A DNA stretch of 64,000 nucleotides. Origin: Candidatus Uhrbacteria bacterium. Its GTDB lineage: Bacteria; Patescibacteriota; Patescibacteriia; UBA9934; GWF2-40-263. Position numbers and translations under genes: made by a program. Shown here piece after piece: positions 8,889-37,243 of the stretch; positions within the stretch are counted from its first letter, which is position 1; every line of letters starts with the position of its first letter. The stretch is taken from NCBI GenBank assembly GCA_016844925.1, contig JAERTI010000038.1:66936-130935 (forward strand), in the 5' to 3' direction. The notes beneath the pieces are model-generated. The model saw only the letters and a list, made by a program, of their open reading frames with translations, was not told where the DNA came from and searched no databases.

Positions 8889-9425
8889 CTAGCGGACCTC
8901 GACGTGCGTGGTGCCGAGGAGGTTGCCATCGTGGCGGGCTTCTACCGTCCAGGTGCCGGACTTGCGCAGGGTCTTCTCGTCGCGGGTGCGCCAGGCGGGG
9001 GACGGGCTGGTGATGCGCACGGTCTCGATGCGGTAGGGGGTGTCCGGGACGGACTCGTGGTACCAGATGAACTGGATCTCGATGGGAACAGTGGCGTGTC
9101 GCGGCGTGGCGACGGACACCCAGGCGTAGACCTTGGTGTTCACGGCGCTGGTTGCGATCGCGCCCGTGCTGTTCTTGCCGTCGAGCCCTGCGGCGATGTG
9201 GAACTCGTTCGCACGCACGGTGGTCACGGCGTCCCAGCCCTCCATGAGGGTGCGGTCCGCTTCCATCTGCATCAGGCGATCGACGCGGTCGGGATCCTGA
9301 GCGAGAGCCTCGATCCAGGCCTGCTGCTCGGGGTCGAGCCGCGTGTCCTGGGCGAAGGCGTGGTTGCCGCACAGGGTGAGGGCAAGGGAGCCGACAATGG
9401 CGAGGGGAACCAGGGTTCTCATCAT
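8889..9425 (-). CDS. secreted hypothetical protein
   Basis: Signal peptide MMRTLVPLAIVGSLALTLCGNHAFA. 178 aa with GC-rich codons. Confidence 0.55.
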   Translation of the reverse strand: MMRTLVPLAIVGSLALTLCGNHAFAQDTRLDPEQQAWIEALAQDPDRVDRLMQMEADRTLMEGWDAVTTVRANEFHIAAGLDGKNSTGAIATSAVNTKVYAWVSVATPRHATVPIEIQFIWYHESVPDTPYRIETVRITSPSPAWRTRDEKTLRKSGTWTVEARHDGNLLGTTHVEVR

Positions 9426-18134: not shown

Positions 18135-18469
18135 GCCCACTCCTTGCGTGAGAGACTCCATGACTGACGCTGGAGCCGGGCGCCTGAGACCCAAGGCGGG
18201 TCTCACAACCAAGGCATACACCAAGGTTGGACACCCCAAGATAGCCTATTTTAGGCCTTTTGTCAACCCTCAGGGGTTGCACCCAAGAACTTTTATTGCT
18301 ATATTCTGCGCGTTGGAGATCGCCCCTCAGGGCACGGCGAATCGTAAAACATCCAAAATTGGATGAGATTCCGCCGCCCGAGCGAAGCACTGAAGGAGAC
18401 GACCTAAAACGGTCGTTGACTGAAGAGCGCAGCGAGAAGGTGGAAGATCGCCAATTTTGGATGGTTTAC

Positions 18470-18545
18470 GCACCGGTAGCTCAGTTGGTAGAGCAAGGGC
18501 CTTTTAAGCCCGGGGTCGCGGGTTCGAGTCCCGCCCGGTGTACCA
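18470..18545 (+). tRNA. tRNA-Lys (anticodon TTT)
   Basis: Cloverleaf: acceptor GCACCGG pairs with CCGGTGT. D-arm is GCTC-AGTTGGTA-GAGC. Anticodon loop is CTTTTAA. T-arm is GCGGG-TTCGAGT-CCCGC. CCA is encoded. Confidence 0.85.
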
Positions 18546-28003: not shown

Positions 28004-28445
28004 TCGGTCATTTGCACAACGACTTATCCGGTGGCGATACCTCGTCGTCGTGAATTTATTGGTGATAGTTTTTTTAAGCATGTCATTGGGTCGTGAGGTG
28101 GTTAGGAATTCAACCATCGATGCGGAAATCGCGGCGCTGGAGACAGAGGCAGAAGAGTTGGCGACCAGGAATATTGAGATTAGTGAGCTCAAGACGGCCA
28201 TGCAGACAGAGTCATTTATTGAACGTGAGGCGCGACTAAAATTAGGAATGAAGAAGCCGGGAGAAACGGTTGTGGTGGTACAAGATGACGTCCAGCAACA
28301 AGAGCCGCTTACAGATGATGCGTACGATCCTCTTGGGTATGTAATGGGTATGGAAGAGTCCAGAGAGGTGGTTGCAAATCCGACCAAGTGGTGGTATTAC
28401 TTCTTCGACAAAACAACGTTTGATCAAATAAATTCGTATGAATGA
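27990..28445 (+). CDS. septum formation initiator FtsB/DivIC-like
   Basis: Single TM helix plus a coiled coil AEIAALETEAEELATRNIEISELK. Confidence 0.6.
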   Translation: MPRNDRSFAQRLIRWRYLVVVNLLVIVFLSMSLGREVVRNSTIDAEIAALETEAEELATRNIEISELKTAMQTESFIEREARLKLGMKKPGETVVVVQDDVQQQEPLTDDAYDPLGYVMGMEESREVVANPTKWWYYFFDKTTFDQINSYE

Positions 28446-29394
28446 GGTGACCGAAAAGCCACAGGAGACAAAGGAGCAGCCTGAGCGCAGCGCATCAAAA
28501 ACAAAGAAGTTTCTTCAGACAACGAAGGGAAAAGGTATCGCCGCCGCTATTGTGGTGGTCGTTTTATTTGCTTGGGTAACCTCGCAGGTGTACAGCCGTC
28601 CTGTGACCGATGATCTTGTCCGTCGGGCAAGTGCTGTGATTCCGTATCCAGCCATCTCTGTGAATGGGACAACGGTTTCCATGAAAGAGTTTCTCATTGA
28701 ATATGACGCACTCTTGCAATACTTCGGTGGGAACAGCGGAGAGACGGCTCCTGCTGCCGATCAACTAGAGGTCGCTATTGCCGACACACTCGTGCATAAA
28801 ATTGTGATCGAGCAGCTTGCAAAAGAGCGTGGTGTAGAGCTCGATCAGGAGCGGGTGGATGCGTACTATCAGGACGTTCTCGCTGGGCAGCCCAGTGAGG
28901 AGACATTCATGCAGGAACTCGAAGAGACGTTTGGCTGGACAACGGACGAGTTTAAGGAGCGGATCATTACATCGATCGTTTTGGCGCTGCAGATGACAGA
29001 AGTGATTTTAGAAGATGAAGAACTTCAGGCTGAGCGTGCAGCACTGGCGCAGCAGGCGTATGACCGTGTGATGGGCGGAGAAGCCTTCGCCGTTGTGGCG
29101 AAAGATATTCATAGTGCGTTCCAGGGTCTCGAGAGCGATCTTGGGTATGTGAACTTGTCTGCCGTGCCCGAAAGTTGGTCTGCTGAGGTGGGCGCGCTCG
29201 AGACTGGTCAAGTAAGTGCTGTACTCGATTTACCTGAGGGGTATGCCATGTTCCGATTGGAAGACCGTGTGGAAGGTGAGGAGGATACAAGACTGCACCT
29301 TATGACGATTACAGTCCCAAAGATTACCCTCGAAGTTGTGGTAACGGAGTACCTGGAAGAAGCTGAAGTAAAGCGTTACGTGGGAGTAGAATAG
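28438..29394 (+). CDS. membrane-anchored SurA-N-like chaperone domain protein (putative)
   Basis: N-terminal TM anchor and a periplasmic helical domain. No parvulin motif seen. Confidence 0.35.
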   Translation: MNEVTEKPQETKEQPERSASKTKKFLQTTKGKGIAAAIVVVVLFAWVTSQVYSRPVTDDLVRRASAVIPYPAISVNGTTVSMKEFLIEYDALLQYFGGNSGETAPAADQLEVAIADTLVHKIVIEQLAKERGVELDQERVDAYYQDVLAGQPSEETFMQELEETFGWTTDEFKERIITSIVLALQMTEVILEDEELQAERAALAQQAYDRVMGGEAFAVVAKDIHSAFQGLESDLGYVNLSAVPESWSAEVGALETGQVSAVLDLPEGYAMFRLEDRVEGEEDTRLHLMTITVPKITLEVVVTEYLEEAEVKRYVGVE

Positions 29395-29436
29395 CTTGAT
29401 GGCGCAAAACGTCTTTGATACTATTGCGCCGCCCAC

Positions 29437-29512
29437 GCCACCGTAGCTCAGTTGGTAGAGCAATACTTTCGTAAAGTAGAGGTCGGCGGTTCAAATCCGC
29501 CCGGTGGCTCCA
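29437..29512 (+). tRNA. tRNA-Thr (anticodon CGT)
   Basis: Acceptor GCCACCG pairs with CGGTGGC. D-arm is GCTC-AGTTGGTA-GAGC. Anticodon loop is TTCGTAA. T-arm is GGCGG-TTCAAAT-CCGCC. CCA is encoded. Confidence 0.85.
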
Positions 29513-29546
29513 AAACACCCTGTCGAATGACAGGGTGTTTTGTTTG
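29513..29546. terminator. bidirectional terminator
   Basis: aaaacaccctgtcgaatgacagggtgttttgtttg. Confidence 0.7.
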
Positions 29547-29553
29547 TTAGGAG

Positions 29554-29567
29554 GGTGGATTTGAACC
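29554..29567 (-). repeat. inverted partial copy of a tRNA T-arm (GGTTCAAATCCacc)
   Basis: ggtggatttgaacc is the reverse complement of ggttcaaatccacc. It matches the tRNA-Thr T-arm at 13 of 14 positions. Confidence 0.5.
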
Positions 29568-29672
29568 GAGGGGATGGTAAGGGGAGATATCCCCTTACTT
29601 GCTGGGGGTGACAGCGAGCAAAGCGAGCACCAGAGGGGCGGAAGCCCTTATGGAGAGCCGAAGGCGATGTGA

Positions 29673-29728
29673 AATATCCGCCCGGTGGCTCCAAAACACC
29701 CTGTCGAATGACAGGGTGTTTTTGTTTG
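29673..29728 (+). repeat. direct repeat of tRNA-Thr 3' end plus terminator (att-like scar)
   Basis: aaatATccgcccggtggctccaaaacaccctgtcgaatgacagggtgttttTgtttg duplicates 29493-29546 with two 1-2 nt indels. Confidence 0.75.
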
Positions 29729-29783
29729 TAAAAGAAAAAAGAGACCACGGGGGTCTCGGGACACGTCGCGTGTCAGCGATGTG

Positions 29784-30242
29784 TCAGCAGATGCCCTTGG
29801 GCGGGCGAAGGTGGAACCGCAGCTGGTGCGCCAGGAATCGCAGGGACTTCCGGAGCTGGTGAGGGGACTGGATCACCGGCTTGAAGGCCGTGTGAGAGGA
29901 AGTCCGCTCGAGCGGGTTCTGGTAGACGGTGATGGTGATGTTGTCGTCGCCATCGATCTGGACGATCATCCAGTGAAGACGTCGTTCGCTCCATCGCGCC
30001 ATGGGGATTCGTACGGATCCGTCGGGACTCACGCCCACAGAACTGTTGTGCGGGTTTCCGTGAATGGTCGCGCCACAGTTCGTGTGGATGACGGTGTCGT
30101 ACGGGAGCGGGGCGTAGCCCTCGTCCTTCATCTGAAGCTTCTCTCGCGTGGACTCGATCGCACGCCTGAACTCGAGGGTCTGTGCGGGGAGCTTGGAACG
30201 GAACACGCCGATCCGTTTTGCGTCTGCTTGTCCCATTGGCAT
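29784..30242 (-). CDS. hypothetical protein
   Basis: AGGAGG RBS plus a TTGACA-N17-TATTCT promoter embedded in the upstream terminator. Weak resemblance to the C-terminus of calcineurin-like phosphoesterases, not relied on. GC-rich. Confidence 0.5.
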   Translation of the reverse strand: MPMGQADAKRIGVFRSKLPAQTLEFRRAIESTREKLQMKDEGYAPLPYDTVIHTNCGATIHGNPHNSSVGVSPDGSVRIPMARWSERRLHWMIVQIDGDDNITITVYQNPLERTSSHTAFKPVIQSPHQLRKSLRFLAHQLRFHLRPPKGIC

Positions 30243-30295
30243 TCGGCCTCCTGTGAAAATCGCACCCGGCAGAATAATCAAAAAGACCGATTTTG

Positions 30296-30571
30296 TCAAT
30301 CGGTCTTTTTGCTTTCTAGATACTTTTTAATCCATCGTTTCTTAAAAAACGGGAGGGATTGTGTTGAGAGGTAGTAGCCAATGGTGGGGATCAGGGCGCC
30401 CAGCCATGGTTGTTCTACGCCGATGCCCCACATCACTGCCGTGGCGATGATGTAGGTAATGATCGTGATGCTGACGATTCGATACGTACTTGTCTCCCAG
30501 GCTTTATCCGCCTCCACACGTTGGTTGCGACGCTGTAGTTCATGAATGTCTTTTGATGTCTGGTCGTTCAT
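30296..30571 (-). CDS. small 2-TM membrane protein
   Basis: 91 aa with two hydrophobic helices. The terminator hairpin gaccgatt-ttgtc-aatcggtc lies at 30281-30315. Confidence 0.5.
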   Translation of the reverse strand: MNDQTSKDIHELQRRNQRVEADKAWETSTYRIVSITIITYIIATAVMWGIGVEQPWLGALIPTIGYYLSTQSLPFFKKRWIKKYLESKKTD

Positions 30572-30648
30572 AGTACGTTGGTTGACAGGCTTACAAGATT
30601 CAACTTAGATGCCGGTGGACAATTCTGTCAACGACAGAAGGAGGTGAA

Positions 30649-31263
30649 ATGTCCAAAGTGCCTGAGCCAAACGTGTGGACCGACGCAGAGGGCAAGCCCT
30701 TGGGAGAGCGGACGGACATCGTTGGACGCAGGGGGCCGTTGCCATTCTCGCTGGAGACTGGTGCCAGAGCCGAGCAGTTGTACGAGCAGATGCGCACGGC
30801 CGGAGCTTCGTGCAGGGGGATCAGTCTCGGGCACTTCACACGCTTCCCGCCGCCCAACCCGGATCGCTGCGGTGAGTTCGTGGGGCATCTGCTGCAGTTC
30901 CGAGGGAAGCTCGGAACGGGCTACGAGCACAAGGGAGGATGGCTCAGCTTCGATCTTGTCTTGCGTCGCGTCATGGACGAAGGGTACGTTCCGGCTTCCT
31001 GGTCCATGCTCATGGCCTTCATGACCGCCGGGCACGGCAAGTTGATCGAGCGACCTGACTGTTGCAACGTGCTGGCTCTTGTTGAGGACACATCTCCTCT
31101 GATGGAGCCGAAGCTCAGTCTCAATTGCATGTCGTTCGGTCGCGGTTTCGAGGGGCGACTCAGTCTCTCGGGGAGTCCGCCGTTCGGATTCACGACCGGC
31201 GAGATGTGGATGAACGTCACGGAGAACTGGGTCCTGGTCGTCGAGAAGTCGGAGGCCGACTAG
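30649..31263 (+). CDS. hypothetical protein
   Basis: 204 aa, GC-rich. RBS ggaggtgaaATG. The terminator gccgagcaacacgctcggcttttttt follows. Confidence 0.5.
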   Translation: MSKVPEPNVWTDAEGKPLGERTDIVGRRGPLPFSLETGARAEQLYEQMRTAGASCRGISLGHFTRFPPPNPDRCGEFVGHLLQFRGKLGTGYEHKGGWLSFDLVLRRVMDEGYVPASWSMLMAFMTAGHGKLIERPDCCNVLALVEDTSPLMEPKLSLNCMSFGRGFEGRLSLSGSPPFGFTTGEMWMNVTENWVLVVEKSEAD

Positions 31264-31353
31264 ACCAACGCGCCGAGCAACACGCTCGGCTTTTTTTGTT
31301 TATAGATGTCCACTTGTGAGAGGTTCTTTCGACGGGTATCATAGAAGCACCGA

Positions 31354-32160
31354 ATGACTATGATACGAATCATTTTTCTTTTTGCCGTCGTCTTAATGAC
31401 GGCCGCGCTCCCGGCGAGCGCTGCAGAGGATTTAGAAACGGTTGTCTCAGTGCAGTTCGATGCCGAGACGATCGTGAAGGGGTACACGCTTGAGTCTGAA
31501 GACCAGCGCATGCGTTTAGGGATTCGTCCTGAGACGCTCAATGTCTCAACGCAGGTGGATATCAAAACCCTTGATCCTTCTTTGATGGGAGACTCCCTTG
31601 AGTCATTCGCAGAAGCACCCGCGGATGTGTTGAGCGAGCGGGTGTTGCTGGGGGAGATTTATCTCTTCGACATTTTGAACAAGAGTAGCTATGACGGAAG
31701 CGACTTCTTCTTTCTTGAGATCAAGTATCCAGAAGAGGAAGAGGAAGACGAGCGGCTTCATGGTCGCCGTCGCATCTACTTTTACAACGGTGTGAGCGGT
31801 GAGTGGGAGGAACTCCCGAGTACGGACAGTCCAGAAAATGGTTCTGTGCGCGCGCTGATTCATCTGCCGTACGCACGCTTGGCGATTTTTGAAGATCAGA
31901 TTCCTGAGGTGGGCGAGGCAAGTTGGTATGCCTACAAGGGGTGTGATTGTGCCGCTTCTCCGGATTATCCAAAGGGAACATATCTTGTTGTCACACGCGT
32001 GAATGATCCGGAATCAAGTGTGACGGTGGTGGTGAATGACTATGGCCCTGAGAGGGATGTGCATCCAAATCGTATTATCGATCTAGACCTTGTGGCCTTT
32101 GAGAAACTTGTACCGCGGACCTGGGGGCTTGTGGATGTCCGTGTAACATTATTGCAATGA
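31354..32160 (+). CDS. RlpA-like double-psi beta-barrel (DPBB) domain protein
   Basis: Signal peptide. C-terminal ASWYAYKG...VVTRVNDPESSVTVVVNDYGP...RIIDLDLVAF matches RlpA-like lytic transglycosylase DPBB. Confidence 0.7.
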   Translation: MTMIRIIFLFAVVLMTAALPASAAEDLETVVSVQFDAETIVKGYTLESEDQRMRLGIRPETLNVSTQVDIKTLDPSLMGDSLESFAEAPADVLSERVLLGEIYLFDILNKSSYDGSDFFFLEIKYPEEEEEDERLHGRRRIYFYNGVSGEWEELPSTDSPENGSVRALIHLPYARLAIFEDQIPEVGEASWYAYKGCDCAASPDYPKGTYLVVTRVNDPESSVTVVVNDYGPERDVHPNRIIDLDLVAFEKLVPRTWGLVDVRVTLLQ

Positions 32161-37169: not shown

Positions 37170-37243
37170 TCCCGGGTCGTCTAAAGGCAGGACATCTGGT
37201 TTTGGTCCAGAGAATCGGGGTTCGAATCCCTGCCCGGGAACCA
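37170..37243 (+). tRNA. tRNA-Gln (anticodon TTG)
   Basis: Acceptor TCCCGGG pairs with CCCGGGA (U1-A72). D-arm is GTCT-AAAGGCA-GGAC. Anticodon stem is TCTGG/CCAGA with loop TTTTGGT. T-arm is CGGGG-TTCGAAT-CCCTG. CCA is encoded. G37 is atypical. Confidence 0.7.

Follow-up and report, generated by a model that had tools for sequence, protein, structure and literature searches.

A non-coding direct-repeat scar, apparently lineage-specific, at the 3' end of a tRNA-Thr gene in Candidatus Uhrbacteria

The tRNA-Thr gene, its duplicated 3' end and the spacer

The stretch of DNA considered here, called the window, comprises 64,000 nucleotides of a Candidatus Uhrbacteria genome (contig JAERTI010000038.1), and all positions given without a locus name refer to it. 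The locus of interest carries, in this order, genes encoding DivIC, a SurA-like peptidyl-prolyl isomerase (PPIase), tRNA-Thr, a DPBB protein, FtsE and FtsX, with UvrABC further on. The tRNA-Thr(CGT) gene, found on the plus strand at 29437-29512 by ARAGORN and by Rfam (RF00005, 68.5 bits), is intact, has an encoded CCA end and shows the same sequence in seven close relatives. Downstream of this gene, its 3' end and its terminator occur a second time, beyond a short spacer. Judging from sequence comparison, the whole feature is a lineage-specific non-coding rearrangement scar and not a gene island.

The core of the duplication is an exact 47-nt direct repeat identified by a repeat finder (29495-29541, identical to 29676-29722; start-to-start spacing 181). 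With up to 3 mismatches tolerated, a search of the window finds this repeat twice, and 100 shuffles yield no match. If two indels are admitted (AT after AAAT and one extra T in the T-run), the repeated segment R extends to 29493-29547 for the first copy (R1) and to 29673-29729 for the second one (R2), both read on the plus strand, with 98% identity over 54 nt. Thus, the initial annotation, which reported a downstream duplication of the tRNA-Thr 3' end and terminator with two small indels, had the right coordinates. R includes 18 nt of the tRNA (end of the T-loop, 3' strand of the T-stem, 3' strand of the acceptor stem and CCA), followed by the terminator hairpin and by GTTTGT. On its right side, R2 runs into the flank that is seen after the single terminator of the relatives.

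About two thirds of R corresponds to the terminator. Intrinsic terminator 1 (29511-29542, plus strand) has a 14-bp stem and a GAAT loop, with an A-run before the stem and a T-run after it; because of these two runs, it is potentially active in both directions. Intrinsic terminator 2 (29693-29722, plus strand) is identical to it, and both copies of R score as strong intrinsic terminators. The terminator stem differs by compensatory changes in each lineage examined. The 8 differences in 22 nt that separate it from the stems of the close relatives could have indicated a swap of the terminator for foreign DNA, an explanation that was rejected since the stems vary in all lineages and the overall divergence is 9-12%.

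The spacer S that separates R1 from R2 lies at 29548-29672, or covers 134 nt (29542-29675) when the exact repeat alone is counted. Its left part contains an inverted copy of the T-arm (29553-29568, minus strand), 15 of whose 16 positions are complementary to 29487-29502, i.e., to positions 51-66 of tRNA-Thr (p about 0.006 by local-alignment shuffle). The inverted T-arm 14-mer noticed initially between the two copies is thus real and extends a little further than first described. Together with the arms of the terminator, this inverted T-arm makes up a 56-nt imperfect palindrome (77%) centred on terminator 1. More generally, S shows at its left end, when taken together with the terminator, a mirror image of the tRNA 3' end: 29529-29568 can be aligned with the reverse complement of 29487-29524 along the hairpin arm, the GGAG at 29550-29553 (which is complementary to CTCC) and the T-arm. 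One mismatch interrupts this alignment, as do a 6-nt deletion and an 8-nt insertion, the layout of the indels having been read by eye.

Further to the right, the strong hairpin that had also been described between the copies is indeed present (GTAAGGGGA-GATA-TCCCCTTAC, 29577-29598) and has a perfect 9-bp stem, and a further hairpin lies at 29636-29647. Close to the right end of S, TGGAG(AG)CCGAAGGCG (29651-29666, minus strand) resembles the reverse complement of a tRNA-Thr 3' acceptor/CCA end. The alleles that it resembles are those of other Uhrbacteria, namely the loci L008, L019 and L020 (CGCCTTCGGCTCCA); an exact 12-mer, GAGCCGAAGGCG, matches the tRNA-Thr 3' ends of these three loci with shuffle p values of 0.014-0.02 per allele, calculated after the search. 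This resemblance is no more than suggestive.

Except for the T-arm scrap, S has nothing but chance-level 10-12-mers in common with the rest of the window or with 33 related loci, which also led to the rejection of S as a mosaic of locally templated patches. S is absent from the seven close relatives and from three distant ones. Exact-match scans of IMG/VR gave no match to four pieces of S, to the S/R junction or to the tRNA-Thr 3' end, and those of the JGI metagenomes gave none to the two end pieces of S, the only parts scanned there. In the same way, a BLAST comparison of S with phage and plasmid collections returned no significant match, apart from one chance-level phage match (E 0.4). The 134-bp interval includes no credible open reading frame (ORF), and exact-protein look-ups of ORFs spanning S and of the genes at the ends of the window retrieved no record. 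S therefore qualifies, on all of these comparisons, as strain-specific orphan non-coding DNA.

Two simple kinds of structure were also rejected. A tandem duplication of the R-S-R-S type is at odds with the absence of any array at the locus according to Tandem Repeats Finder, with the single occurrence of S in the assembly, which may however have collapsed a higher copy number, and with the conserved flank that directly follows R2. An insertion of a transposon, insertion sequence (IS) or miniature inverted-repeat transposable element (MITE) would likewise give an insert flanked by a direct repeat of its target. However, transposases typically duplicate 2-15 bp whereas the duplication is here of 47-55 bp, the ends of S carry no inverted repeats, no second copy exists in the window or in the related loci, and there is no transposase.

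Occupied and empty sites

Variants of the SurA-like and DPBB proteins that cluster with those of the window at 90% identity come from other samples, and they led to seven contigs of close relatives (L026-L032; ENA, JGI and Logan). Their flanking genes share 88-91% nucleotide identity with those of the window. In all seven, tRNA-Thr is followed by one terminator and then directly by TTTTGTTTGTCAAAGAAAAAAGAGACCACGGGGGTCTC, which in the window comes after R2; the window thus has 181-182 extra bases. The same direct continuation into the flank is seen in distant Uhrbacteria whose tRNA-Thr gene is on the plus strand (L018, L012 and L024). For example, positions 9007-9088 of L018 are contiguous with its intact tRNA gene and 80% identical to 29676-29757. 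The initial annotation had proposed to compare empty and occupied configurations in related genomes, and this comparison does reveal the empty site, in L026-L032, L018, L012 and L024.

The comparison shows that S, about 125-134 bp long, is inserted just past the tRNA-Thr terminator and that the segment from the T-loop to 6 nt past the terminator is duplicated. Parsimony suggests that the ancestor had R and then the flank, and that the lineage of the window gained S and a second R, although it is formally conceivable that the relatives instead lost S repeatedly by recombination between copies of R. By this account the feature is a lineage-specific insertion, accompanied by a duplication, at the 3' end of tRNA-Thr.

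The structure is also visible in an independent assembly. Among the Logan contigs of the same strain (k=31, run SRR13374099), one ends at 29524 and the next starts at 29693; the former position is the start of the repeat plus 30 minus 1, and the latter is the end of the repeat minus 30 plus 1. A k=31 de Bruijn graph is expected to break in this way at both edges of R if the 47-mer has two left and two right neighbours in the reads, and the breaks thus indicate that the raw data connect both ends of S to R.

Breaks at this place are not peculiar to the window. Of the 21 GTDB contigs, 5 (L004, L005, L008, L009 and L010) stop 0-650 bp past the SurA-like gene, at or just after tRNA-Thr, which makes the locus a frequent break point in metagenome-assembled genomes (MAGs) of Uhrbacteria and is consistent with repeats or strain variation. 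Some of the records are themselves doubtful in their labelling. L024 (JACPAO010000074.1), filed as "Methanobacteriota archaeon", has a SurA-like gene of Uhrbacteria type and tRNA-Thr and then unrelated high-GC DNA, so that this contig is probably mis-binned or chimeric. Furthermore, several TPA assemblies labelled "uncultured Gammaproteobacteria" carry the Uhrbacteria locus (among L006, L012, L017, L022 and L023).

Possible origins of the scar

An endogenous duplication-insertion, caused by template switching at the palindromes formed by the T-arm and the terminator, is slightly favoured as the origin of the scar, with a probability of roughly 0.4. Synthesis would have stalled at the strong palindrome of the terminator, behind a heavily transcribed tRNA gene, and a switch of template at this hairpin could have generated, on the other side of terminator 1, the mirror-like inverted scrap of the tRNA 3' end. 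Filler DNA would have been copied or captured from elsewhere. Re-annealing through the AAAT microhomology at the dyad-symmetric T-arm would finally have allowed the stretch from the T-loop to the terminator to be copied again. The order of the template switches, or an involvement of an integrase, is something that we infer.

Several observations support this endogenous origin. S starts with the inverted tRNA 3' end mirrored across terminator 1, and a 4-nt microhomology (AAAT) is found at the S/R2 junction. The identity of R1 and R2 at 47 of 47 positions is explained by a duplication in situ, which requires no foreign attP site matching one particular lineage. Neither the tested ORFs of the window nor about 30 loci include an integrase, and no IMG/VR contig has the tRNA 3' end. 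Moreover, the locus is unstable throughout the family in the absence of mobile genes, as illustrated by duplications in L004 and L006 and by repeated cassette inversions. Duplication-inversion-duplication structures are a product class of replicative template switching, and the scar resembles such rearrangements in part: a direct duplication flanks a short inverted copy of the adjacent sequence, the junctions are located at the hairpin-forming terminator and T-arm, and the second of them has the microhomology. In bacteria, inverted repeats are established as sites of mutation by template switching (E. coli, Lovett laboratory, PMC7202029).

Other features weigh against an endogenous template switch. 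Classical quasipalindrome events alter only a few bases, whereas here about 27 of the 134 bases of the spacer are explained by an adjacent template, and the inverted copy is imperfect. For about 107 nt of S (29569-29675), neither the 64-kb window nor the related loci offer a template, and templated insertions are usually local. The combination of an imperfect scrap with identical R1 and R2 would need error-prone synthesis or two events rather than one clean event. In addition, a junction in the T-loop is a typical product of integrases that target tRNA genes, and the inspection for integrases and for further copies covered 64 kb of the genome.

The main alternative, only somewhat less probable, is that R1 and R2 are a decayed attL/attR pair. 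A prophage, an integrative and conjugative element (ICE) or an integrative and mobilizable element (IME) encoding a tyrosine integrase would have integrated at the T-loop, and a deletion of its interior would have left a 134-bp stump resembling a cis-mobilizable element (CIME). CIMEs are decayed ICEs or IMEs that have lost the integration and transfer genes while keeping attL and attR, and thus form a recognised class (PMC5704250). However, known CIMEs are kb-sized, and ICEs or IMEs with the same att sites can be identified in their species, whereas the scar is far smaller and no cognate element is known. The arrangement itself, an intact tRNA gene followed downstream by a 3'-end copy in the same orientation, is the classic one, and it is shared with the genomic islands of Islander (here as an 18-nt fragment inside the 47-nt repeat). 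Another shared trait is the start of the copy: the left edge of identity falls in the T-loop/T-stem region, the commonest crossover site of these islands (1836 of 3919; Hudson, Lau & Williams 2015, PMC4383910). The unoccupied sites of the relatives, the foreign look of the orphan S and the GGCG...CGCC dyad resembling a T-arm, which a reading of the sequence recognises at the S/R2 junction, point in the same direction. On the other hand, the T-loop is not kept at this junction (GTGAAATAT instead of TTCAAAT), and the mirrored inverted T-arm scrap is left unexplained. Of the approximately 54 bases in the repeat, 36 are outside the tRNA and belong to a hairpin specific to this lineage, which an attP site would have had to match exactly. 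Islander also demands an integrase between the intact tRNA gene and the downstream 3' fragment, and a length of 2-200 kb (PMC4383910); since the interval is of 181 bp, with no integrase or other gene between the copies, the scar should not be filed as a genomic island. The differences from Islander islands further include the location of most of R beyond the tRNA and the inverted tRNA scrap in the spacer. As the initial annotation stated, the window has no integrase among the ORFs tested: Pfam searches of 20 large ORFs and the precomputed Pfam hits of the neighbours revealed no PF00589 domain, several ORFs devoid of Pfam families being left unclassified. The variable region of about 30 related loci contains neither an integrase nor a mobile element at this tRNA gene, IMG/VR has neither the tRNA 3' end nor the tested pieces of S, and the JGI metagenomes lack both ends of S. 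Of the attL/attR signature proposed initially, the direct repeat, the T-loop edge and the empty site are thus retained; no integrase or mobile gene was found with them, and what they enclose is a 134-bp orphan spacer.

Less probable still, and frankly doubtful, is an import by recombination from an Uhrbacterium, or from a sister chromosome, with an oppositely oriented tRNA-Thr cassette, a partly resolved patch of terminator and reverse-complemented tRNA end being left behind. Pairing with an opposite cassette is conceivable because both the terminator and the T-arm are palindromic and can pair in either orientation. The cassette does exist in both orientations among sister lineages, both ends of S resemble the start of a reverse-complemented tRNA-Thr 3' end, the right one matching another allele, the one with the GCCGAAG acceptor stem found in L008, L019 and L020, and identity along the locus is mosaic, with patches of 98-99% in a background of 85-88%. 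However, no donor could be identified, the stretches resembling tRNA are short, the match of the right end is only marginally significant, and none of the Uhrbacteria loci sampled matches the middle of S. It is also very improbable that the structure is an artefact, either a graph cycle traversed once during assembly or a fold-back chimera of whole-genome amplification. The occupied form is known from this MAG and one sequencing run only, and the short-read graph does not give the copy number of the S-R unit. Inverted junctions beside hairpins are typical of chimeras produced by multiple displacement amplification, a pattern that the inverted junction of S fits. This has to be set against an independent assembler that breaks at precisely both edges of the 47-mer and against 107 nt of unique sequence, which would not be expected from an artefact. 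Least probable of all are the readings of S and R2 as a functional gene, for a small RNA or a tRNA-like RNA in which the tRNA 3' end and terminator would serve again, or as the decayed remains of a second tRNA gene. In their favour, S has structure, with hairpins at 29577-29598 and 29636-29647, and the unit ends in a strong terminator. Yet ARAGORN predicts no tRNA or pseudo-tRNA in 29500-29800, Rfam reports no tRNA there at E<=10 and, for S, no family near its gathering score, its matches being mostly driven by the terminator. No promoter-like site was found, and S is absent from every relative, so that it shows neither conservation nor covariation. The second tRNA gene suggested in the initial annotation is contradicted by the same searches and by the sharp end of tRNA identity in the T-loop, where gradual decay would be expected.

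Whatever its origin, the scar would result in two tandem terminators and no new gene, and it alters no gene. The structure should be unstable, an exchange between R1 and R2 being enough to bring back the empty site; the terminators, being palindromes, would also act as inverted repeats that could flip S. The feature is best classed with other direct-repeat scars at tRNA ends, of which it is one more example, and it has no evident function. It should be emphasized that a direct repeat of a tRNA 3' end is insufficient evidence for an island: here the repeat encloses 134 bp, and the neighbouring GC-rich genes are ancestral to the genus.

Reoriented tRNA cassettes and surroundings of the scar

The locus between the SurA-like gene and the DPBB, FtsE and FtsX genes shows other rearrangements in Uhrbacteria. 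Among the GTDB loci L006-L023, the tRNA-Thr(CGT) cassette is on the plus strand in 9 and on the minus strand in 9. Sister pairs (L010 plus and L014 minus, L012 plus and L011 minus, L018 plus and L015 minus) have tRNA genes that are identical or 1 nt apart, in opposite orientations and between collinear flanks. The inverted block extends from the -10 region of the promoter (TTTGTTATCAT) through the tRNA gene to the tail of the terminator (TTTTGTTT). The opposite orientations in sister taxa imply at least 3 independent flips, probably 5-6. An active inversion system working on tRNA genes, such as a host recombinase or an inverton-like switch, might be responsible for these flips.

Duplications and insertions affect the 5' end of the gene as well. 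In L004, the nearest other lineage (63% SurA identity), the last part of the contig (9000-9179) consists of an 84-nt unit perfectly repeated in tandem (2.1 copies), which may be partly an effect of the contig end. Directly behind the conserved promoter, this unit opens with the first 12 nt of tRNA-Thr; it also holds an inverted 8-mer of the tRNA 5' region. Its architecture, a direct repeat of a tRNA end with a spacer that includes an inverted scrap, is that of the window, at the 5' end. L006 (9010-9065) has a 13-nt direct repeat of the tRNA-Thr 5' end (CTGAGCTACATCG) with a 23-nt spacer containing the hairpin CCCGACCGTCGGGG. L007 carries, directly upstream of its tRNA-Thr gene (9058-9199), a palindromic and MITE-like insertion about 142 bp long; its 20-bp terminal inverted repeats (GCTGTGAATGATGAAACTCG) are perfect and enclose a GC-rich hairpin.

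It is possible, though unlikely, that the scar is a trapped intermediate of a general reorientation of small tRNA units in Uhrbacteria, a group of the candidate phyla radiation (CPR), driven by the palindromes of the T-arm and of the bidirectional terminator. The partial duplications of tRNA ends in the window, L004 and L006 would then be by-products of this process. If the cassette flips were mechanistically linked to such scars, they would represent a modestly novel mode of genome rearrangement. The flips are more unusual than the scar, which on its own matters little. In any case, the locus marks a hotspot of rearrangement where MAG assemblies of the family often break, and it offers a lead on the rearrangement of tRNA genes in the reduced genomes of CPR, in which recognisable mobile elements are scarce.

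Two other tRNA genes of the window, tRNA-Lys (18470-18545) and tRNA-Gln (37170-37243), lie on the plus strand, in the orientation of all their neighbours and of the positive GC skew. In relatives they have the minus orientation with respect to the SurA-like gene, tRNA-Lys in L006, L010 and L014, and tRNA-Gln in L006, L007, L012, L013, L015, L017, L018 and L020. This implies that all three local tRNA genes were flipped to the coding and leading strand in the lineage of the window. Upstream of tRNA-Lys, at 18343-18470, a 20-nt inverted repeat (19/20; CGTAAAACATCCAAAATTGG ... CCAATTTTGGATGGTTTACG) surrounds 88 nt, its right arm abutting the 5' end of the tRNA gene; it may be another small palindromic element or the relic of a flip. 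A relationship of S with this element or with the leader of tRNA-Gln was rejected as they show no similarity.

The setting of the scar is that of an ordinary core genome, the window encoding FtsH, PGI, CTP synthase, MraY, FtsW, MurG, MurD and a Mur ligase. Almost all genes are on the plus strand, and the GC skew is positive across the window. The SurA-like protein encoded just 5' of tRNA-Thr has its best matches in Candidatus Uhrbacteria and other Patescibacteria. Directly after the stop codon of its gene, the sequence can be read as a promoter-like TTGATG-N17-TACTAT (29396-29424, plus strand), located outside the scar, which would serve tRNA-Thr. A consensus promoter scan scored this site under its threshold; relatives with a tRNA-Thr gene in plus orientation have TTGAnn-N17-TAnnAT at the equivalent place. 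On the other side of the scar, in the flank, the terminator of the convergent gene orfA (29741-29757, minus strand) is kept in L006, L010, L018 and L026-L032.

Beyond this terminator, a GC-rich block (29784-31263) adjoins the scar without being bounded by R. It comprises orfA (29784-30299, minus strand), orfB (30296-30571, minus strand) and orfC (30649-31263, plus strand), and its GC content reaches 0.60-0.62 at 29600-30200 and 30600-31200, compared with about 0.50 around. In orfA, orfB and orfC, the substitutions relative to the relatives are concentrated at third codon positions, which indicates that the three are probably genes; none of them belongs to a Pfam or PHROG family. The orfA family has about 10 representatives, and orfC is a genus-specific orphan. 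A GC-rich block with three genes is thus present past the second copy, as annotated initially. Its status as an island bounded by this copy was abandoned: the block adjoins the empty site in all close relatives, and homologues of orfA (L006, L010, L014 and L018) and orfB (L017) occupy the same locus in distant Uhrbacteria.

Most relatives have a tRNA-Gly(CCC) gene in minus orientation a short way upstream of the DPBB gene (e.g., L006 9667-9740 and L007 9351-9424). It is absent from the locus (29750-31354) in the window and in the close relatives L026-L032, with orfC roughly in its place. S was considered as a possible remnant of this gene, and this origin was rejected: the scrap matches the T-arm of tRNA-Thr (GGTTCAAATCC) and not that of tRNA-Gly (GGTTCGATTCC). 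It is also weakened by the close relatives, which lack S and tRNA-Gly alike.

The block also varies among the close relatives, L029 lacking 31032-31306 and L031 lacking 30350-30577 and 30681-31306. The region 29676-31300 is about 95% identical to L026-L032, compared with about 87% for the flanking housekeeping genes, and this high identity may reflect recent exchange or constraint. Another patch with 98-99% identity lies at 28350-28650. Such patches of 98-99% in a background of 85-88% indicate mosaic recombination between lineages.

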